39,928 nt of DNA, taken from the IMG/VR virus record IMGVR_UViG_2526164663_000052; one strand, 5' to 3'. The position numbers and the translations under genes were made by a program. The DNA is from a virus (Duplodnaviria; Heunggongvirae; Uroviricota; Caudoviricetes). Of the stretch, positions 1 to 39,082 are shown piece after piece; position 1 is the stretch's first letter; every line of letters begins with the position of its first letter. The notes beneath the pieces were generated by a model. That model did no database searches. It was not told the origin of the DNA and saw only the letters and a program-made list of their open reading frames with translations.

Positions 1-177
1 ATGAAAATTTCCCGCCTTGGAGAAGCGCCCGATTACCGCTTCTCGCTGGCTAATGAGCGTACTTTTCTGGCGTGGATCCGTACCGCACTAGGATTTCTGG
101 CGGCGGGGGTTGGGCTTGATCAACTTGCGCCAGATTTCGCCACGCCCGTCATTCGTGAACTGCTTGTAACCAGGTGA
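1..177 (+). pseudogene. yidH: 5' part of host inner-membrane gene yidH, interrupted by the prophage left end after codon 55 (reads into phage DNA, stop at 175-177)
   Basis: Opens with ATG at position 1 and encodes [55 protein letters not shown], which I recognise as YidH (DUF202). The remainder of the protein (ALLLCLFSGG...LYAG) is found in frame at 38897..39082. Confidence 0.75.
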
Positions 178-340
178 ATCATTTGATACCAACGAGGGTT
201 TTAGTGAAAGGAGGTGAAATCACCTGTAAGATACTGAAATAAAACAGGTGATGTCTGGATGAGCGCTTAAAGTCTATTTGATACCGATTGTGCAATAATT
301 AATCGTTTATTCTAAAATCGGCAAAACTTTTGATACTGCG
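165..340 (+). repeat. Left end with three same-orientation TTTGATACC-type motifs (182-190, 277-285, 328-336), candidate transposase binding sites L1-L3
   Basis: The motif is seen directly three times; its reverse complement GGTATCAAA occurs three times at the right end. Calling them binding sites rests on analogy with Mu attL, not on sequence identity to Mu sites. Confidence 0.55.
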
Positions 341-414
341 ATCTCAACTTTTTAAAGCGTTTAAAACTTCATTAAATCTATATGGCAACTAACATACGGG
401 CCAGCCTCGCCAAA

Positions 415-945
415 CTAACCCGCTTTAGATTCTACCGGATTTGATTGCCTACTTGTCTCGGTTTTTTCCAAAATCTCTCTGACGCAATCGTCTGGCATAT
501 CTACAATCATCAACGCAGCCAGGCGCTTCCTGCCTTCTAGTTGTAATAAATCCTGGTTTTCTTTATCCAGCAGTGTCAGAACCGTCTCTACACCTTTGCG
601 AGCAAGGAGATTGGTTAACTGTTCTCGTTCGTCTTTCGTAAGGAATGAAAGCATCTGTGTAAGTTGATCTCCCTTATCACCAGAACGACCAAAATTACCA
701 CAAATACCAACATCGTTTGGTGATTCACCCTTGCCCTCTTTAAGCCACTCAAGACTAACTCCTTCACTTTCAGAAATTCGTATAAGGATACTTTCTCTGG
801 GGGCTGGTTGTGTTTGTCCTCCCTTGAAATAGCTGTTTAATGTGTTGATATTGATTCCCCACGCTCTGGCAGCTGCACTTCTTGAAGGGTAGCGCTTTGT
901 AAGCATTCCAATACGTTCAATAACAGGTTCTTTTCCCTGCGACAT
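415..945 (-). CDS. Prophage repressor (Mu c-like position, HTH N-terminus)
   Basis: Sits at the left end, divergent from ner-A-B. ATG at 945 is preceded by AAGAGG; the track ORF extends to 1020 with an implausible N-terminus. The N-terminal part (AARAWGININTLNSYFKG) looks like an HTH. Confidence 0.6.
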   Translation of the reverse strand: MSQGKEPVIERIGMLTKRYPSRSAAARAWGININTLNSYFKGGQTQPAPRESILIRISESEGVSLEWLKEGKGESPNDVGICGNFGRSGDKGDQLTQMLSFLTKDEREQLTNLLARKGVETVLTLLDKENQDLLQLEGRKRLAALMIVDMPDDCVREILEKTETSRQSNPVESKAG

Positions 946-1020
946 AAAGATACCTCTTGGTGCTTTTCTAAGGAAAGGTTTCTTTCTATTTATCCAATTG
1001 AAAAATAAGGATAAAAGCAA

Positions 1021-1135
1021 AAAATAGCCAAAATACCAAAAATACCTTGATTTGGTATTTTTAGTGATGCATTATTTACCCGTGCAGATATCCGCACGAA
1101 TATCCGCGCGGGTAACTTTTTAGAATAGAGGAAGT
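1021..1135. promoter_or_regulatory. Divergent repressor/ner control region with repeated operator-like motifs
   Basis: Contains CAAAATACC-AAAAATACC direct repeats plus an inverted GGTATTTTT (1027-1062) and a tandem ATATCCGC x2 (1088-1107), in the 115-bp gap between divergent regulators. Confidence 0.5.
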
Positions 1136-1384
1136 ATGAGTAGAAGAGAAGTTTCAGATCACGATTGGCCGCCTGAAATCATCAAGGCGCGCTTACACAT
1201 GGCTGGCTTATCACTGCGCTCTTTATCTTTAAAGGCTGGTTACAGCAGGGATTCGCTGAAAAGCGTATTACGTACTCCTTGCCGACCGTATCAGCAAATA
1301 ATTGCTGATGCTCTTGGGGTATCGCCTGAAGAAATCTGGCCCAGTAGATACCAGGTTAAGAGCTATATGAGAAAGGCGTCATGA
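1136..1384 (+). CDS. ner: Ner-like DNA-binding regulator
   Basis: 82 aa; the C-terminus QQIIADALGVSPEEIWPSRYQ matches the Mu Ner / Nlp family as I recall it. Lies immediately upstream of the transposase. Confidence 0.8.
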   Translation: MSRREVSDHDWPPEIIKARLHMAGLSLRSLSLKAGYSRDSLKSVLRTPCRPYQQIIADALGVSPEEIWPSRYQVKSYMRKAS

Positions 1385-1385
1385 T

Positions 1386-3476
1386 ATGTATGTCATTGCA
1401 AAAGAACTGATTGGCGCGCCCGGAATGCCTGCTACAACAAAAGGTATTCGCCAGGCATTACAACGTTACGTACAAGGGAAAAGCTGTTGTTCCCGTCGTC
1501 GCTCAGGCTCTAAAGCAACTGAATACAGCATCGACTGTTTACCTGAAGTGACGCAGCAGGCATTACGTGAACGTTATGCCCTGCAACTGATGACGCAAAA
1601 AGCCGATGAATCACCGGCTCCGGTGGTGACAAAGGCCAGACGCTCATCTGACGTGGTTGATGCGGTGGAGGCATATCGCGGATCACCACAACTGATGGTC
1701 GAACGCCTCAATGCCCTGACTGAAAACCAGCGCCAGGTGGCTGATGCACGAATCGCGATCGTCAGCGAAGTGATGAAAGTCGCGCAACAACCCGGTTTCA
1801 GCTGCGCGAAGGCTATCCGGTTTATCGTTGACAACCTGGCACGTTCACAGCTGGACGAGCGCATTGTGGCAATGGTTGAGACGGCGAACGCCAAAAAGGG
1901 AAACAGCCGTGCGTTGAGTGAAATCACGCTGAAGCGATGGATTGCGGCCTTTAACAAGGCACAGAACGCCGCTGAACGCCTGCTTTTACTGGCACCGGGT
2001 AAACGCCAGGAAATAAAAGCCGAAGATATTAACTGGCTGCCCGAATTTCTGGCGCAGTATCGCCAGTCAAACGGCCGACCAATGACCGAGGCTTACGAGG
2101 ATTTTGTTGCTGAATGGCAGCACCGGCACGCTGATGAGCCTTATATGCTCGATATCATGCCCTCTTATGACACCATTCGCCGCGCAATGAAGAAACTGCC
2201 GGAAGTGGTGAAACAAAAAGGCCGGGTGACAGGCAGTGAATACCGTCAGCTTGAGGGATTCACGCGCCGCGACTGGTCCAGAATGCCGGTGAATTATGTC
2301 TGGATTGGTGACGGTCACGGCATGAAGATGAAATGCAGGCACCCGGTTCACGGGCGGCCATTTGCACCGGAAGTGACCTTTGTTATCGACGGTGGCACGC
2401 GCTTTGTGGTGGGCTGGAGCCTTGACCTGGCTGAAAATGTTTTCGCCGTAGCCGGTGCCATACAGCACGGTATTCGCCATCACGGCAAACCGTTTCTGTA
2501 TTACTCGGATAACGGTTCGGGGGAAACCGCCGACGTCCTGGATAAGGAGGTTGTGGGGATACTGCCGCGACTGGGGATTAATCACCCGACCGGGATTGCC
2601 GGTAATCCGCAGGGGCGAGGCATTATCGAACGGCTTAACCGCACATTACCGATGCGCATAGCCCGTAAATACCGCACCTATTTCGGGAAAGGTGCAGATC
2701 GCGAGACGTTACGCAAAACCAACCGCGATTTACGCTCGGCATTTACCGCCCTGCAACAGGGCAAACGGCTGAACGCCCGGCAACAGTCAGCGATGCGTGA
2801 TTTACCGTCCTGGGCTGAACTGATTGATGCCATTCGTGACGGTGTTGAGTGGTACAACAACCGGCCGCACGATGAATTACCGGTGAAGCCGAACGGTAAA
2901 CATTACAGCCCGGCGGAGTTCAGAAAAAAACGCCTGGCGGAAGAGGACACGGAAATTGAATGGCTGTCCGATGTTGAGCTGCGGGATATGTTCCGGCCGA
3001 TGGTGGAACGCCCTGTAAGACGCTGTGAAATACGCTGGCTGAATAATATTTACTACGCGCCCGAGCTGCGTGACGAGCATGGTCGTAAGGTGCTTATCAG
3101 CTATGACATTCATGATGCCGAACGAATTACCGTACGTCGCCCGGATGGCAGCGTGATTTGCGAGGCGGTATGGGACGGCAATAAACGCGAAGCCTTCCCG
3201 GTCAGCGCGGAATACTACAAACAGCAGCAACGCCTTAAAGGCATGCGTAAACGCGCAGAGGAAAAAATCCGTGATGCCGAGGATGAGGTGGTCAACGTGC
3301 TGGAGCACAAGCAGCAGGAGCCATGGCTGGAAAACATCTACCGCCCGGTGGGTAATACGGTGGCCGTTCAGCAACCTGCCGTTGATGATGAACCTGATGA
3401 AGAATACGAGCGTAATTTCCAGCGGGGATTGCAGTTGCTGGAAGCGAAATTAAAAGAAAATGACCCGCTGGCCTGA
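1386..3476 (+). CDS. DDE transposase, MuA-like
   Basis: 696 aa in the Mu A position, followed by the B ATPase. Assigned by size, position and family resemblance. Confidence 0.9.
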   Translation: MYVIAKELIGAPGMPATTKGIRQALQRYVQGKSCCSRRRSGSKATEYSIDCLPEVTQQALRERYALQLMTQKADESPAPVVTKARRSSDVVDAVEAYRGSPQLMVERLNALTENQRQVADARIAIVSEVMKVAQQPGFSCAKAIRFIVDNLARSQLDERIVAMVETANAKKGNSRALSEITLKRWIAAFNKAQNAAERLLLLAPGKRQEIKAEDINWLPEFLAQYRQSNGRPMTEAYEDFVAEWQHRHADEPYMLDIMPSYDTIRRAMKKLPEVVKQKGRVTGSEYRQLEGFTRRDWSRMPVNYVWIGDGHGMKMKCRHPVHGRPFAPEVTFVIDGGTRFVVGWSLDLAENVFAVAGAIQHGIRHHGKPFLYYSDNGSGETADVLDKEVVGILPRLGINHPTGIAGNPQGRGIIERLNRTLPMRIARKYRTYFGKGADRETLRKTNRDLRSAFTALQQGKRLNARQQSAMRDLPSWAELIDAIRDGVEWYNNRPHDELPVKPNGKHYSPAEFRKKRLAEEDTEIEWLSDVELRDMFRPMVERPVRRCEIRWLNNIYYAPELRDEHGRKVLISYDIHDAERITVRRPDGSVICEAVWDGNKREAFPVSAEYYKQQQRLKGMRKRAEEKIRDAEDEVVNVLEHKQQEPWLENIYRPVGNTVAVQQPAVDDEPDEEYERNFQRGLQLLEAKLKENDPLA

Positions 3477-3546
3477 AATAAAAAATAACCCGAGCGGCGA
3501 CTCAGGTTATTTGATTAAACAAGGTATCAAATGAGAGGTTAATAAT

Positions 3547-4479
3547 ATGACTGATATTAACGATGTAATCAAGACCATTGATGAACTTATTGATGGCGGC
3601 GTACTGACGCAGTATGCCATCGCCAGAGAGGCGGGAATTTCCGACGGCACATTATCGGCTTTCCGTAAGGGAAAATATAAAGGCGATAACGCTGCTGTGG
3701 CTGCTTCCCTGCGTTCCTGGTATGAGAACTGGAATAAACAAAGCGCACTGCCGGAACCGCCGCAGTTTGTGGAAACGCAGACAGTCCAGGAGCTGCGCGC
3801 ACTGTTTCAGGCGGTTCGTCTGATGGGCTGTATTAACGTTATTGTGGGCGTACCGGGTGTGGGTAAAACGGCCACTGCCCGTAATTACTGCCAGGAGCAA
3901 CCAAACACCTGGATGATCACCCTGTCACCCGCGCACTCTAGCGTCACGGAGTGTCTGCTGGAGCTGGCCGATGCGCTGGGGATTGATTACACCCGCGCGA
4001 ACAAAGGGGCATTATCCCGCGCCATCCGCCGTCGCCTAATGGGAACGCGTGGACTGGTGATTGTGGATGAGGCGGATCATCTTGGTATTGACGGTCTGGA
4101 GCAACTCCGGGCAATTCAGGACGCCACGGGGATCGGGATGGTGCTTATTGGTAACCCGCGCGGATTGTTTAAAGGTGGACGCCGCGCCTTTGATGATTTA
4201 TCGCGCCTGTTCAGCCGTCTTGCCCGTACAAAACAACTTCGCAAGGCCAAAAAGGCGGATGTGCTGGCCATTGCCAGGGCGTGGGGGATCAGTGGTGAGG
4301 CCGAGCTGGCCGTCATGCAGGCTATCGCTGAAAAGCCGGGAGCGTTACGCGTTCTGACACATACGCTTAACCAGGCGTGGCTCACCGCCAGCGGTGAAGG
4401 CGCGGCGCTGACAGAAAAACATATTAATGCGGCCTTTAAAGAGGTTTATACCAACCCTGAATTACTCTCACAGGTGTGA
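3547..4479 (+). CDS. Transposition ATPase / target DNA activator, MuB-like
   Basis: 310 aa with Walker A GVPGVGKT and Walker B VIVDEADHL. Shares LPEPPQFVETQTV and KPGALR blocks with Mu B as I recall it. Confidence 0.9.
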   Translation: MTDINDVIKTIDELIDGGVLTQYAIAREAGISDGTLSAFRKGKYKGDNAAVAASLRSWYENWNKQSALPEPPQFVETQTVQELRALFQAVRLMGCINVIVGVPGVGKTATARNYCQEQPNTWMITLSPAHSSVTECLLELADALGIDYTRANKGALSRAIRRRLMGTRGLVIVDEADHLGIDGLEQLRAIQDATGIGMVLIGNPRGLFKGGRRAFDDLSRLFSRLARTKQLRKAKKADVLAIARAWGISGEAELAVMQAIAEKPGALRVLTHTLNQAWLTASGEGAALTEKHINAAFKEVYTNPELLSQV

Positions 4480-4481
4480 TT

Positions 4482-4703
4482 ATGGCGGTATTTAATATTC
4501 CTGATATTTACGGACGCTTTTACCTGGTTAATTTCGATAACGTGAAGGTGATTTCACTGGCCGAAAATAAAGAATGTGGCGATTTACTTTTTGAATTTAA
4601 TGACCGCACACGAATGGTGATATCTGCCGGACTTGATCGCGAAGGTGCGACAGACGTTTACAGCGGAATATGCCGTTCTGTTGGTGCGAAACAAGTCAGC
4701 TAA
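4482..4703 (+). CDS. Hypothetical early protein
   Basis: ORF in the early operon; ATG at 4482 follows AGGTG. The track start at 4476 is a GTG overlapping the B stop codon. Confidence 0.45.
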   Translation: MAVFNIPDIYGRFYLVNFDNVKVISLAENKECGDLLFEFNDRTRMVISAGLDREGATDVYSGICRSVGAKQVS

Positions 4704-4715
4704 ATGAGGTGTTAT

Positions 4716-4970
4716 ATGAATATGCAATCCTGCGGTAACAAAATGAATTTATTCGACTCCCTGAACAGCGCGCGCCGTCTGACCGAACTTGCCGGTGCGG
4801 TACTGGAACGCAGTAAGCGCTATCCGCAACGTTTTGCACTGAAAACCACGCCGCCGGTAGGCAACGTGCAGGGAACCGGTGAAATTGAAATCACCATACA
4901 GACCAACGGCCTGCGCCGCCGTGTGAAGGCCACCCGCATCAGCGGCTGCACGGTTTACTGGGAGGTGTGA
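4716..4970 (+). CDS. Hypothetical early protein
   Basis: ORF with ATG at 4716 preceded by GAGG; the track shows an alternative start at 4704. Confidence 0.45.
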   Translation: MNMQSCGNKMNLFDSLNSARRLTELAGAVLERSKRYPQRFALKTTPPVGNVQGTGEIEITIQTNGLRRRVKATRISGCTVYWEV

Positions 4971-5045
4971 GGTGAAAAAAATCTCATTGCATGGGCGTGG
5001 TCGAGTGGTCTTATTGAGTTTGGTTACGTCCTGCCGGAAGGTGCA

Positions 5046-5252
5046 TTGCCGATAGTTGCCGGAAAGCCTGCCACGGTACGGCATGTGATTGAGGTTATGG
5101 CGCGTCATGGACGTGATGAACAGGAGCAGTTACTGGTTCCGGGGATACCGGAAGCGGTGACGGAGGAAGAAGCCTTTAATGCCATGATTCGGTTCTGCCG
5201 TGAGGTCAGACGCCGGGTCAGTTATCCAAACAGAACGAGGACCAGAGGATGA
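5046..5252 (+). CDS. Hypothetical early protein (TTG start, weak)
   Basis: Open frame 4971..5252 with no ATG or GTG; only a TTG at 5046. Confidence 0.25.
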   Translation: MPIVAGKPATVRHVIEVMARHGRDEQEQLLVPGIPEAVTEEEAFNAMIRFCREVRRRVSYPNRTRTRG

Positions 5253-5521
5253 GTAAAGTCGTACGCATTATTTTCGAATACAAGGAGCACGTTATCCATA
5301 AAAACGCTGATGGAACAGTGCGCATGGGGGTAAGTCTGGACATACGTTCAACCGGGATAAAGCAGAAAGGTGATGGACCCGCCATGATTTTTGGGGTGGT
5401 TATGCTCGCGGAAAGCAGAGACTTTGCTGAACTTGTGGCAATGAAAGCCAGTGCGCTCATGAAAGATATGAGCATGCGTTCCGGGGTTATTAAAGGTAAT
5501 GAATTTAATCAGCAGGGGTAA
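5249..5521 (+). CDS. Hypothetical early protein, paralog 1 (MSKVVRIIFEYKEH...)
   Basis: ATG follows GAGG. Its N-terminus is shared with the next gene. Confidence 0.5.
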   Translation: MSKVVRIIFEYKEHVIHKNADGTVRMGVSLDIRSTGIKQKGDGPAMIFGVVMLAESRDFAELVAMKASALMKDMSMRSGVIKGNEFNQQG

Positions 5522-5525
5522 TTCC

Positions 5526-5819
5526 ATGAGCAAAGTACGCGTTATTTTTGAATTTAAGCATGTTTCGCATGACGAAAAACCGGCAGGCAATGACTGTGTT
5601 GAAGTGCATGAAAAGATTGGTGTGGATGTAAAAACAGAACGTGATACGAATAACAGGCCGACGTCACTCTGTGACGTTTATGCAAGTATTCTCCAGTATC
5701 ACAGTCCTGAAATTATTCAGTTTCTCTCAGCGGAATTTCAGGCATCTGTACAGGCTTTTGGGGCGGATGCCATCATTAAACGCCACCGCGTGCATAAAGC
5801 ATCAGGCACACTGCAATAA
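5526..5819 (+). CDS. Hypothetical early protein, paralog 2 (MSKVRVIFEFKH...)
   Basis: Start chosen at the internal ATG 5526 because it gives the same N-terminus as the upstream paralog. Confidence 0.5.
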   Translation: MSKVRVIFEFKHVSHDEKPAGNDCVEVHEKIGVDVKTERDTNNRPTSLCDVYASILQYHSPEIIQFLSAEFQASVQAFGADAIIKRHRVHKASGTLQ

Positions 5820-5830
5820 GGAAAAACAAA

Positions 5831-6361
5831 ATGGCTAAACGTGTTACAAAATTAAAGGCCGCAGCCGAGGCTGCACCGCAGACCCGCGAAGAAGTCAGCC
5901 GCGATATCCGTACCCTGGGCGATATTCAGCGAGAGGCGCTGCGGCTGGAAACGGCGATGAATGATGAAGTGGCAGAAATCACCGCCCGTTATACGCCGCA
6001 GATTGAAAACCTTAAAAAAGAAATCAAAGTGCTTTTTAAGGGGATTCAGGACTGGTGCAAAACCAACCGCGATGAGCTGACGAACGGCGGCAAAACCAAA
6101 ACAGCCAATCTGACCACCGGAACAGTGTCATGGCGGCTGGGAAATCCATCATGCAGCGTCAGCCGTGATGTGGAAGGTGTGATTGAAATGCTGAGCCGTA
6201 TGGGGCTTGAGCGATTCATCCGCACGAAAGAGGAAGTGAACAAGGAAGCGGTCCTGGCGGAGCCGGATGCAGTGAAAGGCATTGCCGGTATTAAGGTGAA
6301 TAAAGGCGCTGAAAGTTTTTATGTCGAGCCTTTTGAACAGGACGCCGGACTGAATAAATAA
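5831..6361 (+). CDS. gam: Gam host-nuclease inhibitor (Ku-like DNA-end binding)
   Basis: 176 aa; DELTNGGK.KTANL..G.VSWR and RFIRTK.E.NKEA blocks match Mu Gam as I recall it. Confidence 0.88.
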   Translation: MAKRVTKLKAAAEAAPQTREEVSRDIRTLGDIQREALRLETAMNDEVAEITARYTPQIENLKKEIKVLFKGIQDWCKTNRDELTNGGKTKTANLTTGTVSWRLGNPSCSVSRDVEGVIEMLSRMGLERFIRTKEEVNKEAVLAEPDAVKGIAGIKVNKGAESFYVEPFEQDAGLNK

Positions 6362-6458
6362 CACCGCATTAAATCTTTAAATATCACATCGTTTTAAGTA
6401 TGGCGCTCGCGTCAGGGGACTGCCTGCGCCTGTAAACTGAAAATAAGGAACAGGATAT

Positions 6459-7001
6459 ATGGCATATTTTTATTTCAAATTAGACCGTGTGCAGACAAAT
6501 AAATATTTCACCAAATATCAACAGACTGTTTTACCGCTACGCAACAGTATTCTTCGGGCATTACTGAAAAATACAGGCGCTGCCGGATTGCGCTTAAAGC
6601 CGTTTGCCATGGACGTAATCAGTGAGTTTTATTTTTCTGGTGCTCTGCCTGCGGGCTGGCGTAAGCGCGATGATGTGGCTTTTATCGGGGACGGACCGTG
6701 CTTTATTGCCAGACCTGATGAGTCATGCCCTGAAGGACCGGCGATTGCCGCAATGATTGAAGCCGCTGAACGCGAGTTAAGAAAGCGTCCTGATTTCCTT
6801 GTCTGGCTCTGTGAAAAGCTGGGGGTAATGAGAATCCCCTCCATGTTTAACATGGACTCCTGGTGGACCCCGTCGCTCTCCCGTGATGCCCTGTGCGTGG
6901 TGTTTAAAGTAGGCGCTTATGGCAGGGAAATAAAAGGGGGTATTCCTGAAGAATGCCAGGAGATTAAACATTCTGAATATGTGGCGCTGACGGAGGAATA
7001 A
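6459..7001 (+). CDS. Hypothetical early-region protein
   Basis: 180-aa ORF; SD AAGGAA upstream; no family recognised. Confidence 0.5.
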   Translation: MAYFYFKLDRVQTNKYFTKYQQTVLPLRNSILRALLKNTGAAGLRLKPFAMDVISEFYFSGALPAGWRKRDDVAFIGDGPCFIARPDESCPEGPAIAAMIEAAERELRKRPDFLVWLCEKLGVMRIPSMFNMDSWWTPSLSRDALCVVFKVGAYGREIKGGIPEECQEIKHSEYVALTEE

Positions 7002-7004
7002 TTC

Positions 7005-7538
7005 ATGATTGATGCAAAAGTGCTTGAAGGGGTTAAAAACTGGCTGAGTATTTACGGGCGTCTGACCTGCGGCATTCTGGCTGAAAAAATGAATATGCCG
7101 CCATCCTCGATGGTTTATTTTCTGCGTGATGCGGTCGATGCCGGGGTGCTGACGGAATGTAACGGTTTTTATGATATTCCGCGTCCCCGCCCGGTGCAGC
7201 CGGTTCGTCGCAAATGCAGCCAGGAAGGTGCGGCTGATGATGTTCAGTGGTGCAGCTTCAGAAAATCCCTGCCGTGGATTGAGGGGCATGATATTCCGTC
7301 AATGGCGTGGGAATTTGCTCAGGGCGTTCTGACCTGTGAAACCGTTTATGTGGTGGCTGAAGTTGATGAGCAGGCCATGAAAGAAGGCGTGCCCCAGTTT
7401 GTGATGGCGTATATCGACATACGCCTGGGTGTCATTATCTGCGGTTTAAGCGGCTGGAATATCACCTCGCGCGTTCTGCGTTACCTGATTGTTGACCGGA
7501 CGGCCGCGCCTGCCGGGATATCTGCGGAGGTGGCGTAA
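7005..7538 (+). CDS. Hypothetical early-region protein
   Basis: 177-aa ORF tightly packed in the operon; no family recognised. Confidence 0.5.
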   Translation: MIDAKVLEGVKNWLSIYGRLTCGILAEKMNMPPSSMVYFLRDAVDAGVLTECNGFYDIPRPRPVQPVRRKCSQEGAADDVQWCSFRKSLPWIEGHDIPSMAWEFAQGVLTCETVYVVAEVDEQAMKEGVPQFVMAYIDIRLGVIICGLSGWNITSRVLRYLIVDRTAAPAGISAEVA

Positions 7539-8053: not shown

Positions 8054-8056
8054 TGT

Positions 8057-8608: not shown

Positions 8609-8790
8609 TAAAGAGACTTGTATTTTTCGCAATTTTCGTTCCGGTGTTGGGGGTTGGTTTTATATTTGCGATTACAGGAAACCTGTCCATGATGCCAGAT
8701 ATTTGGTTCTTTATCAGGATGTCGCTCTTCCTGTTTATTATGAATCTTCTTATCGACATATATATCCGTATTACTGGAAAACATAAATGA
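8605..8790 (+). CDS. Small hydrophobic (likely two-TM) protein
   Basis: 61 aa, strongly hydrophobic (FFAIFVPVLGVGFIFAI ... LFLFIMNLLIDIYI); the sequence reads as AT-rich. Confidence 0.4.
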   Translation: MIKRLVFFAIFVPVLGVGFIFAITGNLSMMPDIWFFIRMSLFLFIMNLLIDIYIRITGKHK

Positions 8791-10143: not shown

Positions 10144-10147
10144 CTCC

Positions 10148-10178
10148 AAATCCCGCCACAACGCGGGATTTTTATTTT
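10148..10178 (+). terminator. Rho-independent terminator after the gemA-like gene
   Basis: Stem ATCCCGC / loop CACAAC / stem GCGGGAT, followed by TTTTTATTTT. Confidence 0.6.
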
Positions 10179-11875: not shown

Positions 11876-11885
11876 GGAAAAAGGT

Positions 11886-32010: not shown

Positions 32011-32921
32011 TGTTTCATGTTGATAATAATTCCGGCGTGGCGAATATGCCTGCGCTGGCACCGGCGCAGAGTAATACCACCACCTGGTTTACCGAAGGTG
32101 ACGGACAAAAAGGTATCAGCTGGATTGGTCAGGACTGGCTGAATATTCTCCAGGCCGAACTGCTGAATATTCTGGCTGAAGCCAGTATTCAGCCGGATAA
32201 GGCGCAGTTAAACCAGCTTACGCTGTCCATTAAAGCCATTATCGCTGCGAATGCCTTTTCCCGGAAAAACAACCTGAAAGAAATTGCTGATGCCGGTGCG
32301 GAAGCCCAGCGTCTTGCCCGTGGTTATCTTGGTCTTGGGGCGCTTGCCACAAAAAACAGTCTTGGTCCCGGTGACGTTAATGCTCTGGCGAAGGATCAGA
32401 ACCTTGCCGACCTGGAGAATGCGGGAACCGCCCGTAATAATCTGGATGTTTACAGCAAAAGCGAAGGTGATAACCGTTACCTGCGCAGGGAGCAGAACGG
32501 CGCAGACATTCCGGATAAAGGCGCTTTTATCGATAACGTCGGTTTACGGGAAACGGTAAATAAGGCTGCTGATGCCCTGCCATCGGGTGGAACCGCCGTG
32601 GCAGCAAACAGACTCGCCACCCCAAGAAATATTAATGGCGTTCCTTTTGACGGAACGCAGGATATCAACATCACGTCAGGAATGACGCAGTCAACCGCAG
32701 ATGGCCGGTATGTACAGAATGTTCAGCTTGGAGCACAGAGCTATCATTCACCCGGAGGCAATGAAATATCATGGAATTACAGCGCACCTTCCGGTTGTAT
32801 GCTTTCCGGTATTAACGTGCAGGAAACCGGCTCCCGGTCTGCGGACAATATCGGTGGGGTCTATTATCGCCCGGTTCAGATTTATATTAATAATGCCTGG
32901 AGAACGGTAAGTTCAGTGTAA
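32010..32921 (+). CDS. Tail fibre protein (constant N-terminal part plus current variable C-terminal cassette)
   Basis: 303 aa. The C-terminal ~125 aa is homologous to a second cassette encoded on the opposite strand at 33599..33970. Confidence 0.8.
   Translation: MFHVDNNSGVANMPALAPAQSNTTTWFTEGDGQKGISWIGQDWLNILQAELLNILAEASIQPDKAQLNQLTLSIKAIIAANAFSRKNNLKEIADAGAEAQRLARGYLGLGALATKNSLGPGDVNALAKDQNLADLENAGTARNNLDVYSKSEGDNRYLRREQNGADIPDKGAFIDNVGLRETVNKAADALPSGGTAVAANRLATPRNINGVPFDGTQDINITSGMTQSTADGRYVQNVQLGAQSYHSPGGNEISWNYSAPSGCMLSGINVQETGSRSADNIGGVYYRPVQIYINNAWRTVSSV
32527..32552 (+). other. Left recombination site (gix-like) of the invertible segment, inside the tail fibre gene
   Basis: TTATCGATAACGTCGGTTTACGGGAA resembles the Mu gix site as I recall it, and recurs as an inverted copy at 33947..33976. 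Confidence 0.6.
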
Positions 32922-32931
32922 ACCACAGAAA

Positions 32932-32950
32932 AGGGTGCTGAATGCACCCT
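32932..32950. terminator. Hairpin between convergent tail fibre and tail fibre assembly genes
   Basis: AGGGTGC / TGAAT / GCACCCT stem-loop with a T-rich tract on the minus-strand side. Confidence 0.45.
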
Positions 32951-32955
32951 CTGAA

Positions 32956-33477
32956 TTATTCCGGTTTTTCCGGCCAGGGAATCGCCTGGTAATGCCCCTC
33001 ACTGGCAATATCATTAAAGTGCATTTCTTTAAGCTGTCGGATATACGCCATCCAGCGCGTCAGCTGTAATTTATTTTCATCGCTAATCATGTCCAGTTTT
33101 AATTCTGTTTTCCAGTCATCCACGGTTTCGTTGGCTTCCTGGAGCAGCGATGAGCGACGCTTTTCAGCAACCGTCTTCCAGTTTACCGGCACCTTTGATA
33201 TCAGGCCATCAGAAAACTGCCAGTTACCGTCAATATTCACACCTTCCGGCAGTTCGTCCACTTCAACAACAGTAAAACCTGCCGGATATAAAGCAGAGAC
33301 ATCTTCAGCAACAGAGCAGATAATACCCGTTACAGGCGAAATACAGAGTTTGTATTTCTTTGTGAAAAGCGGGATAGATTCATAAAAATCCCTTCCGTCC
33401 TCACTCTGGAAATACTGAACATCCTCACCATAGGGTTTGTCTTTCGGGTAATATCGTTTGACATTAATCAGTTGCAT
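32956..33477 (-). CDS. Tail fibre assembly chaperone (Tfa, Mu U / P2 G-like)
   Basis: Start taken at the internal ATG (MQLINVKRYYPKDKP...). The C-terminus (...HYQAIPWPEKPE) resembles phage tail-fibre assembly proteins. The track ORF has an AT-rich, implausible N-terminal extension. Confidence 0.75.
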   Translation of the reverse strand: MQLINVKRYYPKDKPYGEDVQYFQSEDGRDFYESIPLFTKKYKLCISPVTGIICSVAEDVSALYPAGFTVVEVDELPEGVNIDGNWQFSDGLISKVPVNWKTVAEKRRSSLLQEANETVDDWKTELKLDMISDENKLQLTRWMAYIRQLKEMHFNDIASEGHYQAIPWPEKPE

Positions 33478-33598
33478 AAACATCACCATGTAAATCAATG
33501 ATAAAAACAGGAATAATACTATCGCCATATACAGGCAATGCTTGTCTGAAATAACGCATATTTCAGATGCTGGCTGCTGTGTGCTATGCCCCCGTTAA

Positions 33599-33970
33599 TT
33601 AAATACTTGCAGCGGATACCCAATGCCCATTAATACAATATTGTATCTGTCTGTAATAAACACGGTCATCACCACCACGCATTTCCCAGTCTCCGTCAGT
33701 CTTAAAACCGGTAATCACATTTCCTGATGACAGGGAGTAATTATATTCCAGTCCGCCGCTTAATGCCTGCGCTCCCAGTCTTACCCCTGTAACATAACGC
33801 TGATTGGCCGTTGATTCCGGCATTCCTGACGTAATGTTTATATCCTGCGTGCCGTCAAAGGCGACACCATTGATTCTGCGGGCATTTGCCAGCCTGCTTG
33901 CTGCAACAGCCGTACCGTTTGATGGCAGGGCATTCGCGGCCCTGTTTACCGTATCCCGTAAACCGAGGTT
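33599..33970 (-). other. Alternative tail fibre C-terminal cassette, with no start codon of its own (expressed only after inversion)
   Basis: The minus-strand frame is open from 33970 to the stop at 33599. It translates to GLRDTVNRAANALPSNGTAVAASRLA...NGVAFDGTQDINITSGM..., parallel to GLRETVNKAADALPSGGTAVAANRLA...NGVPFDGTQDINITSGM... in the + strand fibre. Confidence 0.65.
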
Positions 33971-33976
33971 TCAGGG
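33947..33976 (-). other. Right recombination site (gix-like) of the invertible segment
   Basis: Inverted copy of the TCGGTTTACGGGA-ACGG core (one mismatch), followed by a further ~30 bp of imperfect inverted homology. Confidence 0.6.
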
Positions 33977-34032
33977 ATGCCGTATATCTGCTTTAAAAGG
34001 CTTTTCCACCTCTTTTTAAGGAAGGTAAATAC

Positions 34033-34593
34033 ATGCTGATTGGCTATATACGCGTATCAACAAATGACCAGAACACCGGTTTACAAAGAAATGCGCTGGA
34101 ATGTGCAGGATGTGAGCAGATTTTTGAAGACAAAATGAGTGGTAAAACGACACAGCGGCCGGGACTGAAGCGGGCACTGAAGAAACTAAAACCCGGTGAC
34201 ACGCTGATGGTCTGGAAACTGGACAGGCTGGGGCGCAGTATGCGCCACCTTGTTGCGCTGACAGATGAATTACAGCAACAGGGGATAAATTTTCGTAGTC
34301 TTACTGACAACATTGATACGTCAACCCCCATGGGGCGCTTCTTTTTTCACATAATGGGTGCGCTGGCAGAAATGGAGCGTGAATTAATTGTCGAACGGAC
34401 ACGGGCTGGTCTTGCAGCAGCCCGTGAAAGGGGACGAACCGGCGGCAGACCCCGCCGTCTCACGCAGGAACAATACGAGCAGGTCGGGCGTTTACTGGCC
34501 GGGGGTGTCAGTCGAAGACAGGTGGCACTTATTTTTGATATCGGTCTTTCAACCCTTTATCGTTATTATCCTGCGAGCGTTTCGGAAAAATAA
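34033..34593 (+). CDS. gin: Serine DNA invertase (Gin/Hin/Cin family)
   Basis: 186 aa; N-terminus MLIGYIRVSTNDQNTGLQ with catalytic-serine context, C-terminal HTH; lies next to the invertible segment. Confidence 0.9.
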   Translation: MLIGYIRVSTNDQNTGLQRNALECAGCEQIFEDKMSGKTTQRPGLKRALKKLKPGDTLMVWKLDRLGRSMRHLVALTDELQQQGINFRSLTDNIDTSTPMGRFFFHIMGALAEMERELIVERTRAGLAAARERGRTGGRPRRLTQEQYEQVGRLLAGGVSRRQVALIFDIGLSTLYRYYPASVSEK

Positions 34594-34692
34594 GACGCTC
34601 CCTTTGTTGGGCCTTTACTGAATTAACGCAAAATGGCGTTTATCGGTCTGTGGATATGATAATTCAGTTTATTCAGGAACAGGCTGATTATT

Positions 34693-36741
34693 ATGACGTC
34701 CAAATGGGTTCAACTATCATCAATGCCCGGAAACTTTACTGTTAAAGTTTCCGGTGGTACAGCGGCATTTCTTGAGGCTCCCTTTCCTCCGGCCGAAACA
34801 AAAGGAGGAATGACATTTGCTGACTGTCTCATCAGTTTTAATACACAGGATTGCCTGTGGGTAAGGCCAGTATCCGGTGATCCGAACGTGGAAATTACCG
34901 GAGCGGGTATTGGTGCTGTCATTCCGTTAAGTGCTGATGTTGCCGGTACTACTGAACCGTCAGACTGGGATAATGCAGAAACACATACCCGTCCGGCAGG
35001 AAATGAAACGGCTTCCAGCTCCCCTTCCTGGTATTACGTGATTGTTATAGCCGGCCAGTCCAATGCTTCATCTTATGGTGAAGGGTTGCCCCTTCCGGAT
35101 TCTTATGATCGTCCTGATCCACGTATTATGCAGCTGGCACGCAGGAATACACAAACCCCCGGAGGTATTCCCTGCAAATACAATGAAATCATTCCAGCAG
35201 ATCACTGCCTTCATGATGTTCAGAATATGAGTCTGCTGAACCATCCAAAAGCAGACCTGAAAAAAGGGCAGTATGGTTGTGTGGGGCAGGGACTTCATAT
35301 TGCGAAAAAAGTATTACCGGTGATTCCTGCTGATGCCGGGATTTTACTGGTTCCCTGTGCCCGTGGCGGCTCTGCTTTTACAACCGGCGCAGTTGGCTCA
35401 TTCGATCCGGCAAGTGGTGCAGCCGAGGCGTCACTACGCTGGGGAGTGGATACCCCACTGTATCAGGATCTTGTCAGTCGAACTAAAGCGGCACTTGAGG
35501 CGAATCCAAAGAATGTGCTGTTATCTGTCGTATGGATTCAGGGGGAAGGAGACCTTAAAGCGACCCCGGCCCAGCATGGTGCCCAGTTTACTGCGATGGT
35601 GAAAAAATTCCGTGCGGATCTTGGTGCTTTCTCCGGTCAGTGTATTGGTGGTTCATCAGACAGTGTGCCGTGGTTATGTGGTGACACAACCTATGACTGG
35701 AAAGAGAAGAACCCGGCGGCATATGAAACCATTTATAGCGGATATAAAAACCGGGCTTCCGAGAACATTCACTTTGTTCCACTGATGCACGATGAGTTCG
35801 GTAATAAAACCGCGACCAACCTGCCGGAGCACGACCCGGATATCGCTTCTGCCGGGTATTATGGTGCGGAATCACGGGGAGATGGCAACTGGACAACAGC
35901 ATCCAGGGCAACCCATTTTAGCTCCTGGGCGCGCCGTTTTCTGGTCTCAGATCGTTTTGCATCAGCAATTCTTAAATATGCAGGTCTGACCTCTGCATTT
36001 ATTGCCGGTGTGGCCCCTGATGGTGAAGCCCTGCCTCAGCCCGCGCCGGGTGGGAAACCGGAAGCGCCGACAGGTAGTCAGCCAGGAGGCAGTGAGTCCC
36101 CCCATCCGACATCCCCGTCACTCCGTACGCTGCTTTCACTTAAAGCATCAGCAGGAGAAGCCCCGGCTCAGGGCTGGAAAATTACAGATGGTACAATCCA
36201 GCTGACGGACGAAGGTAAAGCGTTGACCGTATCCAAACAAAGCGGAAAAACCTGGACGCTTACCCATGGAACTGATGCAGCCGGTGAACTTCTGAAGCAT
36301 GGTGGTCAGTTGACCTGTAAATTCCGTCTGTCAGGTGAAGTAAAAGAAGGCCAGTTTGCTCTGGGTATTTACCTCCACACCGATACGGTCCCGGAAGGTG
36401 TAACCATGAGTGGTACAGGCACACCGTTCCTGATGGCGTATTATCTCCAGACAACAGGCGGCCAGTTAAATCTGATGCACCATAAAACAGGGGGGAATAC
36501 GAAACTGGGATCATTTGGAGCCTACAATAACCAGTGGCATACACTTGTCCTGAAGTTTACGGCGGGAAGTGCCCAGGTAACGCCTGTGCTGGATGGCACT
36601 CCGGGCCAGGCATTCCAGATGGTGAAAGATGCACTTTCCCCTGCCAAAGATACGCTGACACTGACAGATGTCACCAAAGGGGCAACTTATGGCGTGTCTT
36701 TTGAGAGCGTTGTCCTTGAGGTTAATACCCCTGCGGCATAA
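34693..36741 (+). CDS. Cargo gene: putative SGNH/SASA-family carbohydrate O-acetylesterase with a C-terminal beta-rich domain
   Basis: 682 aa. VIVIAGQSNASSYGEG (GQSN block), CARGGS and VWIQGEGD motifs resemble the sialate O-acetylesterase (SASA, NanS-type) family. Mu has no gene of this kind between gin and com. Confidence 0.5.
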   Translation: MTSKWVQLSSMPGNFTVKVSGGTAAFLEAPFPPAETKGGMTFADCLISFNTQDCLWVRPVSGDPNVEITGAGIGAVIPLSADVAGTTEPSDWDNAETHTRPAGNETASSSPSWYYVIVIAGQSNASSYGEGLPLPDSYDRPDPRIMQLARRNTQTPGGIPCKYNEIIPADHCLHDVQNMSLLNHPKADLKKGQYGCVGQGLHIAKKVLPVIPADAGILLVPCARGGSAFTTGAVGSFDPASGAAEASLRWGVDTPLYQDLVSRTKAALEANPKNVLLSVVWIQGEGDLKATPAQHGAQFTAMVKKFRADLGAFSGQCIGGSSDSVPWLCGDTTYDWKEKNPAAYETIYSGYKNRASENIHFVPLMHDEFGNKTATNLPEHDPDIASAGYYGAESRGDGNWTTASRATHFSSWARRFLVSDRFASAILKYAGLTSAFIAGVAPDGEALPQPAPGGKPEAPTGSQPGGSESPHPTSPSLRTLLSLKASAGEAPAQGWKITDGTIQLTDEGKALTVSKQSGKTWTLTHGTDAAGELLKHGGQLTCKFRLSGEVKEGQFALGIYLHTDTVPEGVTMSGTGTPFLMAYYLQTTGGQLNLMHHKTGGNTKLGSFGAYNNQWHTLVLKFTAGSAQVTPVLDGTPGQAFQMVKDALSPAKDTLTLTDVTKGATYGVSFESVVLEVNTPAA

Positions 36742-36798
36742 TCGTGACGGCCGGGAATTTATCCGGCTGTAACATCAGTTAATAAGAGTGAGGCTTAT

Positions 36799-36978
36799 AT
36801 GACATATATAAACGTCTGCCTGCTGTATTTCTGCACGGTGGTTTGTTGTCTGTTGCTTGTCAGCGGTGGTTATAAAATTATTCGCAATTATTTTCGAAAT
36901 AAAATTGATGCAGCTGCCGAGGAAAAGATAAAAAGCGGTGCTGTAATGCCGCAGCCGAAAGACTCCGGTCAGATTTAA
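36799..36978 (+). CDS. Small hydrophobic protein (59 aa, below the ORF-track cutoff)
   Basis: ATG 36799 preceded by GAGG; translates to MTYINVCLLYFCTVVCCLLLVSGGYKIIRNYF... (one TM plus a charged tail). Confidence 0.4.
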   Translation: MTYINVCLLYFCTVVCCLLLVSGGYKIIRNYFRNKIDAAAEEKIKSGAVMPQPKDSGQI

Positions 36979-37013
36979 TTTTTTGTGAACCAGAAAAGGA
37001 AAGGAGAATATTC

Positions 37014-37259
37014 ATGCCAGAGATTAAAGGCACGGTTACTGAAGAGCTTGTCAAACAGGCACTTTATTCTGAAGAAGTGAACCGCGTGCTGAAGGCGCAG
37101 GTTCGCAAGGATTTTGAGGCACAAATCGACGCATATGTTGATGAAGTGCTGGCCCGAATGGTTGGTCGTTCTCCGGCTGAAAACAGCACGGAAAATGAGC
37201 CTCAACCCGTAGAGCAACCAGAGCCGGTTCAACCCGGAACTGACGGTACTATGATGTAA
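37014..37259 (+). CDS. Hypothetical acidic protein
   Basis: 81 aa; strong SD AAGGAAAGGAGA upstream; followed by a hairpin. Confidence 0.5.
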   Translation: MPEIKGTVTEELVKQALYSEEVNRVLKAQVRKDFEAQIDAYVDEVLARMVGRSPAENSTENEPQPVEQPEPVQPGTDGTMM

Positions 37260-37268
37260 CAATACCGA

Positions 37269-37288
37269 CCGGCAGGTTTCCCTGCCGG
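37269..37288. terminator. Hairpin between convergent small genes
   Basis: CCGGCAGG / TTTC / CCTGCCGG perfect stem-loop, between the + strand stop (37259) and the - strand stop (37298). Confidence 0.5.
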
Positions 37289-37297
37289 GTGAATTTG

Positions 37298-37468
37298 TTA
37301 ATGCACGTTTTGTGTATTTTCCCTCCGGGGAGAACAGGCCGGACATATCAGCATCCTGAAACAGGAAGCATTTTTTGGTTTGTATGTCTTGCCATTTTGA
37401 GATCGAGAACGGCGATAGATGAGCTGTAAGGGAGTCTTACAGGCAGGGCAAACAGGCTCTTTATCCAT
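37298..37468 (-). CDS. Small zinc-ribbon protein (CPAC...CPAC), 56 aa
   Basis: ATG at 37468 preceded by AAGGAG; translates to MDKEPVCPACKTPLQLIYRRSRSQNGKTYKPKNASCFRMLICPACSPRRENTQNVH. Convergent with the 37014..37259 gene. Confidence 0.45.
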   Translation of the reverse strand: MDKEPVCPACKTPLQLIYRRSRSQNGKTYKPKNASCFRMLICPACSPRRENTQNVH

Positions 37469-37689
37469 GATAAAGATCTCCTTTTTATGCATCTCTGCTT
37501 TACAGGAGACCGGGGAATATCATAGGATACGCCACGAGCTCGAAGTAAAGCATTGATGCAAGTTTTTACAGATTGACCCAGCATAGTTCCAGCTATGCTG
37601 GGTTTCCCTTTTATGTAGTATCCTGTTGATTTGAAACATACTACATATACGCGCGATCCTACCTTCACTGTATAAAAAGTCAATAAAAT

Positions 37690-37827
37690 GATCATTTTAT
37701 GATCGTTTTCACCACCTAACTCTTCGTTTCTTTAAGTAAATAATCACCGCCCTGAATCATTGTTGATGACTTTTAAATCTATTTGTTGTATCAATTAAAC
37801 AAATCGAATCGATCGTTTTTGTCGATC
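37690..37827. promoter_or_regulatory. Candidate mom-operon regulatory region with four GATC (Dam) sites in two pairs
   Basis: GATC at 37690, 37701, 37811 and 37824; the second pair sits in a near-palindrome AATCGATCGTTTTTGTCGATCGATT, ~50 bp upstream of com. The Mu mom promoter is known to be controlled by Dam methylation and OxyR. Confidence 0.5.
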
Positions 37828-37874
37828 GATTGCATGAGAAAGGCATCAACAACAAAGCAGGAGGTTATGCGGCC

Positions 37875-38075
37875 ATGTATCGAAACATACGGTGCCGACA
37901 CTGCAATAAGCTACTGGCACGGGCCAGTTTCAGTTATCTGGAAGTAAAATGTCCGCGCTGTAAAACCCTCAATCAAATCACATCTCCGAGCGCCACAGAG
38001 CACCCCACATACACAAGGAAATCCTGTCGTGGGGAACAGAAAGCAAGTCACATCCCGTATCATCAGCACGCCTGA
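37875..38075 (+). CDS. com: Com, zinc-finger translational activator of mom
   Basis: [14 protein letters not shown]...KCPRCK matches Mu Com (M..IRC.NCNKLL...RCPRCK) as I recall it; overlaps the start of mom. Confidence 0.8.
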
Positions 38076-38766
38076 ACTTATTCGCTATAACGACAATATC
38101 GTTGGTTATGGCTCCCGTGAGTTGCGGGTTGAGACAATAAGTTGCTGGCTGGCCAGACTGGTTATCGTCAATAAACATTACAGCCACCGTTTCGTAAATA
38201 ATTCCTACCTTCATCTGGGTATATTTTCAGAACGGGAACTTGTTGGCGTAATGCAATGGGGTTACGCCCTTAACCCAAACAGTGGTGCACGCGTCGTAAC
38301 GGGTACGCAGAACCGAGAATATATGGAGCTTAACCGGCTATGGATGCATGACTGTATGCCGAGAAACTCCGAATCAAGGGCAATCAGTTACGCGCTCAAG
38401 CTAATCAGGCAGCTTTATCCGCAGGTACAGTGGGTTCAGTCGTTTGCAGATGAGCGTTGTGGCTGTCTTGGTGTCGTGTATCAGGCAAGCAATTTTGATT
38501 ATGTAGGCAGCCATGAATCAACATTCTATGAACTTGATGGCGAGTGGTATCACGAGATTTGCAGGAGTGCCATTAAACGAGGCGGACAACGAGGTGAACA
38601 TCTGAGGGCTAATATCGACAGAGCCAGTGTGCATAAGTTCCGACAGTTTCGTTACATCCGGTTTCTGAACAAGAGGGCCAGAAAACGCCTCAACACAAAG
38701 CTATTCAAAGTCCAGCCTTACCCAAAACCACAAACAGTTAAAACTGGTTTGAAAGAGAGTGAATGA
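38029..38766 (+). CDS. mom: Mom DNA-modification protein (anti-restriction adenine modification)
   Basis: 245 aa from a GTG start overlapping com. It occupies the Mu mom position at the right end, immediately after com. Confidence 0.85.
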
Positions 38767-38812
38767 GCGCTTAAAAACTCATTCTAAAACTCAAAAGAAA
38801 AGCGCCGATTTA

Positions 38813-38880
38813 GTATCAAATAAGTTGCGTATCGGCGTTTTTCAGCGGTATCAAATGAAATGCAAATCGGTATCAAAAAA
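38813..38880 (-). repeat. Right end with three GGTATCAAA motifs (38813-38820, 38848-38856, 38869-38877), inverted relative to the left end
   Basis: Seen directly; mirrors the left-end motifs. The terminal 12 bp CGCCGCGCTATA resembles the Mu right end as I recall it. Confidence 0.55.
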
Positions 38881-38896
38881 ATCGCCGCGCTATATG

Positions 38897-39082
38897 CTGG
38901 CGTTGTTGTTGTGTCTGTTTTCCGGCGGGTTAGCGATGTATGGCTACCTGCGCTGGTTACGCAATGAAAAAGCGATGCGTCTGAAAGAGGACCTGCCCTA
39001 CACCAACAGCTTATTAATCATTAGCTTAATATTGATGGTCGTGGCGGTGATCGTTATGGGACTGGTGTTGTATGCCGGATAG
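38897..39082 (+). pseudogene. yidH: 3' part of disrupted yidH
   Basis: In frame LALLLCLFSGGLAMYGYLRWLRNEKAMRLKEDLPYTNSLLIISLILMVVAVIVMGLVLYAG, continuing the protein that starts at 1..165. Confidence 0.75.

Follow-up and report, generated by a model that had tools for sequence, protein, structure and literature searches.

The window analyzed here, the whole 39,928-nt stretch of IMG/VR record IMGVR_UViG_2526164663_000052, contains the gene yidH split by a Mu-type prophage of approximately 38.7 kb, as the first-pass annotation of this DNA had proposed. Alignment with the intact yidH of strain E2865 (L001, positions 441-788) bore out the split and moved its edges: nucleotides 1-164 of the gene correspond to window positions 1-164 and nucleotides 161-348 to positions 38895-39082, where the 5' part had been thought to end at 165 and the 3' part to start at 38897. 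The duplication around the insert comprises exactly four bases, TGCT, and this tetranucleotide is indeed the exact core shared by both flanks, as had been noted. The first base of the phage is the T at position 165, and both terminal sequences read earlier, TGTAACC on the left and TA in place of CA on the right, hold. The predicted inactivation of yidH holds as well, since the 5' open reading frame (1..177) now runs into the phage and stops at position 177, after 58 aa. The features of the locus are the following.

1..164, plus strand: 5' fragment of yidH, nucleotides 1-164 of 348, without difference from intact yidH up to base 164
161..164, no strand: left copy of the 4-bp target-site duplication TGCT, yidH nucleotides 161-164 (comparison with intact yidH and paired insertions)
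165..38894, plus strand: Sp18-type Mu-like transposable prophage, 38,730 bp, 5'-TGTAACC...GCGCTATA-3' (related E. coli copies)
182..190, plus strand: L1, TTTGATACC repeat 17 nt inside the left terminus, in the same register as R1; presumed transposase-binding site
277..285, plus strand: L2, TTTGATACC repeat
329..337, plus strand: L3, TTTGATACT repeat
415..945, minus strand: divergent gene in the repressor position, c-like regulatory protein (open reading frame; Sakai Sp18 homologue annotated 'regulatory protein'; weak YfeC-like Pfam match only)
1136..1384, plus strand: Ner-like DNA-binding protein, HTH_35 (PF13693, 69.5 bits)
1386..3476, plus strand: transposase A, 696 aa, MuA-type architecture (PF02316 and PF09299 above cut-offs)
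3547..4479, plus strand: MuB-type AAA+ target-DNA activator, 310 aa, gene adjacent to that of the transposase (PF09077, 88.6 bits)
37875..38075, plus strand: com-like regulator (open reading frame; near-identical copies annotated 'Com family')
38029..38766, plus strand: mom, DNA adenine modification, the last gene before the right end (open reading frame; relatives annotated Mom)
38812..38820, minus strand: R3, TTTGATACT repeat
38847..38855, minus strand: R2, TTTGATACC repeat
38869..38877, minus strand: R1, TTTGATACC repeat, 17 nt inside the right terminus
38893..38894, plus strand: right terminal dinucleotide TA-3', non-canonical (CA in Mu), invariant across copies
38895..38898, no strand: right copy of the 4-bp target-site duplication TGCT (comparison with intact yidH and paired insertions)
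38895..39082, plus strand: 3' fragment of yidH with the stop codon, nucleotides 161-348, without difference from intact yidH over this whole part

A Mu-like gene set is annotated in the near-identical copies of this prophage. No integrase is present in the phage, which encodes a MuA/MuB-type gene pair instead. The domains of transposase A score 28.7 bits for PF02316 (cut-off 23.3) and 63.2 bits for PF09299 (cut-off 21.7), and the protein is 22% identical to MuA (E = 9e-11); Mu is absent among the tblastn matches listed for it. The B protein is much closer to its Mu counterpart, with 48% identity to MuB over 300 aa. The retroviral-integrase-like D,D,E core of the transposase is formed by D309, D375, and E415. 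The two aspartates align to D269 and D336 of MuA, and D375 and E415 align to the DNGS and VERANR motifs of RSV integrase, which hold its catalytic D and E. The spacing between the second D and the E is approximately 40 residues, as in retroviral integrases, compared with 56 in MuA. RSV integrase matches the core of the Sp18-type transposase better than the MuA core does and employs the same DDE chemistry; otherwise the retroviral enzymes are unrelated. The DNA-binding and C-terminal domains of the Sp18-type enzyme are of the MuA type, and its partner is a MuB protein. ARAGORN detected no tRNA in the window; RefSeq gives a 'tRNA-OTHER' in a near-identical copy.

The closest well-known relative is prophage Sp18 of E. 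coli O157:H7 Sakai, which is 98.4% identical over 33.3 kb and 98.8% identical at the right end; about 1.5 kb of the window (approximately 35.5-37.0 kb) is unaligned, a segment of 1.7 kb adjacent to it is only 89% identical, and the three aligned segments together cover 95% of the length. Sp18 shares the termini, the 4-bp duplication, and the gene order c, ner, A, B ... com, mom, and differs in the insertion site. Sp18 and its STEC relatives are the 'Mu-like phages' of the papers on O157 and CC119. Among 5,426 complete E. coli genomes, 232 carry Sp18-type prophages, at 284 places in total, and yidH is not one of the sites. The copy in the window is 99.97% identical to a copy residing at another locus in strain 2014C-3307, which suggests recent mobility. 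Beyond this group, the transposase gene is 80.5% identical at the DNA level over 1.5 kb to those of Yersinia phages vB_YpM_5 and vB_YpM_6; the record of vB_YpM_5 is circularized with approximately 95 nt between the ends, and the exact termini cannot be fixed from it. The transposases of Pseudomonas phage VW-6B (47% identity) and Mannheimia phage 3927AP2 (44%), as well as those of Casadabanvirus, the D3112/DMS3-type Pseudomonas phages (approximately 30%), are all closer than MuA.

The junctions had previously been read as an imperfect 5-bp scar with one mismatch, on the expectation that a Mu-type phage should leave a perfect 5-bp duplication. We consider the duplication across the Sp18-type family, using the insertions in which both flanks could be read: 11 independent E. 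coli insertions, including Sp18 of Sakai in sorM, and four from IMG/VR, a metagenome contig, and LC727881. An exact 4-bp repeat adjoins identical termini in all 15. The E. coli copies have the termini TGTAACCAGG.../...CCGCGCTATA, and a 5-bp repeat occurs in none of the 11. An exact 4-bp repeat is expected by chance about once in 256 per insertion, and chance as the source of the repeats is excluded by the 15 insertions. The additional base that a 5-bp duplication needs matches in two of the 15, the chance level being about 25%. The repeated sequence varies with the site (TGCT, TGGA, AGCT, AATT, CGTG, TAAA, and others; TAAA in sorM of Sakai) and is absent from the phage ends. Three insertions, in yidH, sorM, and bcsA, were checked against empty sites, and removal of the phage with one 4-bp copy gives uninterrupted sorM and bcsA at 100% identity, over the full length and in one piece. 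As a control, the same script applied to Mu prophages of E. coli W and B-766, which share one insertion site, returned TG...CA termini and a 5-bp repeat.

The depositors of LC727881.1 annotate 4-bp repeat_regions at Sp18-type termini as 'duplication due to insertion of Mu'; these regions (35673..35676 and 75645..75648) lie on either side of a Mu region whose exact ends are TATAGCG... and ...GGTTACA. No statement on the length of the Sp18-type duplication was found in the literature searched. A prophage inside IS26 on a Klebsiella plasmid is flanked by AGAA; here the fifth base is ambiguous because the next base of the target equals the first T of the phage, and the insertion fits 4 bp without being decisive.

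The termini are equally constant. In an even sample of 60 genomes from 234 records, all 60 have the terminal A of the right end, as do 47 of 47 viral or metagenome matches with 42 distinct flanks that were retrieved by a search pattern omitting this base. At the left end, the terminal T occurs in 24 of 24 matches (21 distinct flanks); a scan of genome contigs for this end gave no match. Inside the termini lie TTTGATAC(C/T) repeats, three per end, starting at nucleotides 18, 113, and 165 from the left terminus and at 18, 40, and 75 from the right one. The phage contains eight copies in all, six of them within these end arrays, and the repeats are presumably transposase-binding sites. The first TTTGATACC repeat is situated exactly 17 nt from both termini, and thus the cleavage sites are symmetric only if the phage occupies positions 165-38894. 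Two attempts to restore a 5-bp register were rejected: a right end shorter by one base conflicts with the invariant terminal A, and counting the first T of the phage as target requires a T at the fifth base of the right flank, which is found in only one of the 11 E. coli pairs.

The above analysis indicates that the window almost certainly represents an ordinary, unmutated integration of an Sp18-type Mu-like phage into the E. coli gene yidH. The 4-bp duplication and the asymmetric TG...TA ends are constant properties of the lineage and not defects of this copy; the mismatch perceived earlier arises from the imposed 5-bp register. Once the true ends are placed, the duplication is perfect, as one outcome foreseen in the first-pass annotation required, at 4 bp and not at the 5 bp named there. 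The comparison of termini with related Mu-like prophages that it suggested likewise clears the scar, as the other copies examined all have the same TG...TA ends and a 4-bp duplication. Suppose, on the other hand, that a normal 5-bp Mu duplication had been formed, that a later mutation or a miscall altered one base of it (CTGCT against ATGCT), and that the right end is degenerate. Such an account would fit the window taken alone, with four of five matches in the 5-bp register, and Mu itself, including our control, makes 5 bp (PMC3562280). The same mismatch, however, would have had to arise anew in 13 of the 15 insertions, the disputed base is A in all copies regardless of the target, and the comparisons with empty sites agree exactly with 4 bp. 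With the terminal A invariant and a 4-bp repeat at each of the 15 insertions, this possibility is already refuted, and we attach practically no credence to it.

A subtler variant retains a 5-nt stagger and places the true right end at ...GCGCTAT, the final A coming from the non-transferred strand through incomplete removal of the 5' flap and being fixed by repair. Flap processing is known to occur after Mu infection, and in a single copy such an event would account for a constant-looking base beside a 4-bp repeat. Replicative transposition, however, would exchange this A for target sequence, yet it is retained in every genome and every viral or metagenome match inspected; moreover, the distances between the cleavage sites and the terminal repeats would then be 16 and 17 nt and not 17 and 17. 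We consider this variant very unlikely. Arrival without transposition, by site-specific or microhomology-mediated recombination at TGCT with the four bases as the crossover core, deserves hardly any weight either: an att core would also look like a short core shared by both junctions, but hardly any two sites have the same 4-bp sequence, which is also missing from the phage ends, 42 distinct right flanks occur, and the phage has the MuA/MuB-type pair and no integrase. In addition, Sp18 DNA is reported to be packaged and not circularized (PMC2669165).

For the ordinary integration favored here, the following sequence of events can be proposed. Transposase A, aided by the MuB-like ATPase, would bind the three repeats at each end and expose 3'-OH groups after ...ACA on the bottom strand of the left end and after ...TATA at the right end. 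Joining of both ends to target phosphates with a stagger of 4 nt in place of 5 would leave two 4-nt gaps, and their fill-in would create the TGCT duplication. As judged from the scars, the 4-bp duplication thus probably reflects 4-nt staggered strand transfer. Such a change of stagger has a parallel in retroviruses, for which two papers (PMC4422553, PMC3790719) give duplications of 4 to 6 bp depending on the genus, showing that the stagger is tunable within this enzyme class.

The prophage resembles Mu in gene layout, in the arrangement of three repeats per end (L1-L3/R1-R3), in the position of com and mom at the right end, and in near-random insertion sites, and differs from it in the duplication and ends (4 bp and TG...TA against 5 bp and TG...CA; PMC3562280) and in the sequence of the end repeats, which is unrelated. 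The strict traits of Muvirus, namely a 5-bp duplication, TG...CA ends, and close MuA homology, are absent. D3112-type phages are reported to have 5'-TGT at both termini (PMC4378225), whereas the Sp18-type right end reads TAT. Phages of the B3/Tn552 type generate 6 bp in place of 4 (PMC8705779). The 'TA-TA' transposable prophages of Leptospira, which end in TA on both sides, duplicate 6 bp, and encode a transposase of the B3/Tn552 type (PMC8705779), share a natural departure from the TG-CA rule; the Sp18-type phages differ in having TA at the right end only, 4 bp, and a transposase of MuA architecture.

According to reviews, Mu-type phages produce 5 bp and B3-type phages 6 bp, with TG-CA ends in all (PMC8705779, PMC3562280). 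The Sp18-type lineage contradicts this generalization rather than falling under it, as it combines a MuB-like partner and Mu-like end architecture with 4-bp duplications and one TA end. Klebsiella relatives, whose transposase is only 56% identical, have the same termini TGT...CTATA and the same 17-nt register. We see an even chance that the Sp18 lineage, perhaps reaching Klebsiella, is a natural MuA/MuB-type system with a 4-nt stagger that tolerates or requires a TA-3' right end. If so, the '5-6 bp, TG-CA' rule of the reviews would have an exception, one that has been annotated in one GenBank record and apparently never described or studied, and the lineage would be a ready comparator for asking how DDE transpososomes set the length of the stagger and what terminal dinucleotide they require.

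For the window itself the consequences are small: the yidH junction is what a known, mobile STEC prophage normally leaves behind, here at a site not seen before, and nothing points to mutation or misassembly. The wider point is modest as well. In practice the result bears on annotation, as pipelines and readers expecting 5 bp and TG...CA will misplace the ends of Sp18-type prophages; in the RefSeq feature for Sp18 of Sakai, the left end is wrong by 1 nt and the right end by 5 nt. Finally, a candidate hot-spot motif GCTGGCGT near several insertion sites turned out to be partly an artefact, because the loci came from BLAST lists ranked by flank similarity, and an unbiased tally gave only a weak target preference, GC|NNNN|GC.

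Alignment of both junctions to the uninterrupted yidH of strain E2865 (L001, positions 441-788) demonstrated that the gene is split, as the first-pass annotation had proposed, and that the insert is 38,730 bp long, with junction coordinates corrected by one to two bases. The TGCT core that it had noticed in both flanks comprises exactly four bases on each side of the insert, and the right end of the insert indeed reads TA. The features considered below are as follows.

Window 1-164: yidH 5' part, identical to yidH nt 1-164
Window 165-38894: insert, 38,730 bp, starting with TGTAACC and ending with GCGCTATA
Window 1386-3476: A, transposase gene of MuA-type architecture
Window 3547-4479: B, gene of the MuB-type AAA+ target-DNA activator
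Window 38895-39082: yidH 3' part, identical to yidH nt 161-348
Phage nt 18, 113, and 165: left-end repeats
18, 40, and 75 from the right terminus: right-end repeats

The cut-short 5' reading frame of yidH ends within the phage and is 58 codons long. On the other side, a 107-aa ORF with a GTG start (window 38759-39082, + strand) begins in the right end of the phage and continues in frame through the 3' yidH fragment, so that a fusion product with the YidH C-terminus is conceivable.

The insert is a Mu-like transposable prophage of the Sp18 type, named after the prophage in sorM of E. coli O157:H7 Sakai. Sp18 was published as a Mu-like phage that is packaged, not circularised, and found at strain-specific sites (PMC2669165, PMC7430833, PMC10132054). 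The left and right kilobases of the insert have matches at a wide range of loci in over 100 complete E. coli genomes, and its last 500 bp match at 284 places in 232 genomes; none of 5,426 complete E. coli genomes has the phage in yidH. What the window shows is an ordinary integration of an already known type of phage at a site new for it. Sakai Sp18 is 98.4% identical to the insert across 33.3 kb, with a region of about 1.5 kb unaligned and an adjoining 1.7 kb 89% identical. The window matches the Pfam families Mu-transpos_C, HTH_Tnp_Mu_1, and Phage-MuB_C, and the RefSeq annotation of related copies gives the full Mu-like gene set: a regulator, Ner-like protein, transposase, AAA ATPase, Gam, and Mor, followed by lysis genes, terminase, portal, head, contractile tail, invertase with tail-fibre genes, Com, and Mom.

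The copy in an alcohol-dehydrogenase gene of strain 2014C-3307 is 99.97% identical to that in the window, from which it differs by one substitution (position 6194) and six indels (3486, 4982, 6825, 12394, 21051, and 24243; five of 1 nt and one of 6 nt). At 6825 it is the 2014C-3307 copy, not the window copy, that is annotated as frameshifted; each remaining difference may be a sequencing error or a genuine frameshift, in one copy or the other. Strain 90-3040 carries a copy with the same termini (L007, NZ_CP027459.1 2297378-2298430), in which a DNA cytosine methyltransferase is annotated where other copies have mom. RefSeq annotates a 'tRNA-OTHER' in a near-identical prophage (L002 22023-22102, roughly window 17,840-17,920); no tRNA was detected by ARAGORN across the whole window.

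Both junctions were also read for ten other independent insertions in E. coli, among them Sakai Sp18 in sorM and the PA20 copy in bcsA. In all eleven, the window counted, the termini are identical (TGTAACCAGG... and ...CCGCGCTATA) and adjoin an exact 4-bp direct repeat (TGCT, TGGA, AGCT, TGCT, AATT, CGTG, TAAA, TTAT, CGTT, CACT, and AGAG), and none of these repeats is longer than 4 bp. Since the 4-bp sequence varies between sites, a site-specific crossover is excluded. Four extra junction pairs, from two IMG/VR genomes, a metagenome contig, and GenBank LC727881, bring the 4-bp repeat to 15 of 15. Empty sorM and bcsA sites constructed on the assumption of a 4-bp duplication aligned to the uninterrupted genes at full length, in a single piece and with 100% identity, so that with yidH three insertions are verified against empty sites. 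The same script, applied as a control to the Mu prophages of E. coli W and B-766, which share one insertion site, returned TGTATTGATT...CGCCGCTTCA and a 5-bp repeat, GCCGC; the method therefore separates 4 bp from 5 bp.

By these criteria Sakai Sp18 spans 5040970..5079724 (L011, L012, L028); the RefSeq feature 'prophage Sp18' (NC_002695.2 5040971..5079729) begins 1 nt too far in on the left and overruns the true right terminus by 5 nt. Metagenome contig QZLY01000953.1 (300-12824, L070) contains a 12.5-kb element with both Sp18-type ends and the 4-bp duplication ACTG that holds just patches of the phage interior; it represents either a derivative with an internal deletion or an assembly collapse in the metagenome.

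Two readings that retain a 5-nt stagger were considered: the duplication may have mutated after insertion, or the right end may be one base shorter, its A stemming from the non-transferred strand. On either reading the base should vary at a position where an invariant A is seen. The terminal A is present in 60 of 60 records drawn evenly down a ranking of 234, including copies of just 92-96% identity. Viral and metagenome collections, scanned with end patterns purposely lacking the terminal base, gave A at the right end in 47 of 47 hits (42 distinct flanks) and T at the left end in 24 of 24 (21 distinct flanks). The match needed by a 5-bp model, between left-flank position -5 and the base before the right flank, occurs in 2 of 15 pairs, not above chance. 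Three TTTGATAC(C/T) repeats lie at each phage end in an arrangement resembling the L1-L3 and R1-R3 layout of Mu; the first is 17 nt from the terminus left and right alike, so that only ends at 165 and 38894 make the two cleavage positions symmetric.

The best explanation is standard DDE transposition with a target stagger of 4 nt rather than 5, by a transposase divergent from MuA. From the scars and the sequence we infer both this stagger and the predicted role of the end repeats as transposase-binding sites. Divergence from Mu is very unequal between the two transposition proteins, the A protein being 22% identical to MuA and the B protein 48% identical to MuB. Nearer relatives of the transposase occur in Pseudomonas phage VW-6B (47%), Mannheimia phage 3927AP2 (44%), the D3112/DMS3 group (~30%), and RcapMu (30%). 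D309 and D375 of the A protein align to D269 and D336 of MuA, and D375 and E415 to the motifs DNGS and VERANR of RSV integrase, which places the D and the E about 40 residues apart, as in retroviral integrases and in contrast to 56 in MuA. The core matches RSV integrase (PDB) with E = 2e-5 and the MuA core more poorly (E at least 0.19), and by sequence is retroviral-integrase-like.

Mu has a conserved CA at both ends and a 5-bp target stagger (Harshey review, PMC3562280). According to a 2021 paper on transposable prophages, duplications are 5 bp in Mu and 6 bp in B3, and TG-CA ends are shared by every Mu-like or B3-like phage described until then, except the new Leptospira TA-TA prophages (PMC8705779). 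The expectation of 5 bp and CA, on which the junction had been judged anomalous, is inapplicable to the Sp18-type lineage, with 4 bp in 15 of 15 pairs and an invariant terminal A, although the observation itself was essentially right. A literature search did not find the duplication length of Sp18-type phages in the text of papers. GenBank LC727881.1, the record of a Stx2c phage that harbours a Mu-like phage insertion, is annotated with two 4-bp repeat_regions ('duplication due to insertion of Mu_JNE082796') bracketing a Mu region whose limits coincide exactly with the termini found here; the 4-bp scar was therefore already known to careful annotators, even if not discussed in print. This record probably derives from the CC119 study (PMC10132054). 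The residual point is modest: this MuA/MuB-type system, with 4-bp duplications and one TA end, lies outside the range given in reviews.

A Klebsiella plasmid prophage, with a transposase 56% identical to the A protein, has the termini TGTTAAG...GCGCGCTATA in the same 17-nt register as the window phage; it sits in IS26, where AGAA is common to both flanks and the fifth base is uninformative. These termini, register, and flanks suggest, short of proof, that both the TA end and the 4-bp duplication predate the E. coli phage. In Yersinia phage vB_YpM_5 (MT374853.1, L013, 4560-4970), a circularised record, the right and left repeat arrays are ~95 nt of other DNA apart; under the 17-nt register its ends would be 5'-TATGAAG...GCTTTA-3', TA at both, in a single record whose exact termini are not fixable.

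Unrelated target genes have long strings in common beside the insertion point (window 38895-38907; L005; L008/L009; L011/L012), which to some extent reflect the choice of loci. TGCTGGCGTTGTT is common to yidH and icmH, and CTGGCGTGGTAT to bcsA (PA20) and sorM (Sakai), where the two insertions lie 6 bp apart; at no fewer than five other sites BLAST extends the right flank 7-8 bases past the phage end (query 1002-1003). The 42 right-end and 21 left-end flanks (window 153-164 and 38895-38906, loci L002-L074) show a weak palindromic target preference, GC-NNNN-GC: past the duplication the first base is G in 19/42 and the following base C in 19/42 right flanks, and position -6 is G in 11/21 and position -5 C in 8/21 left flanks.
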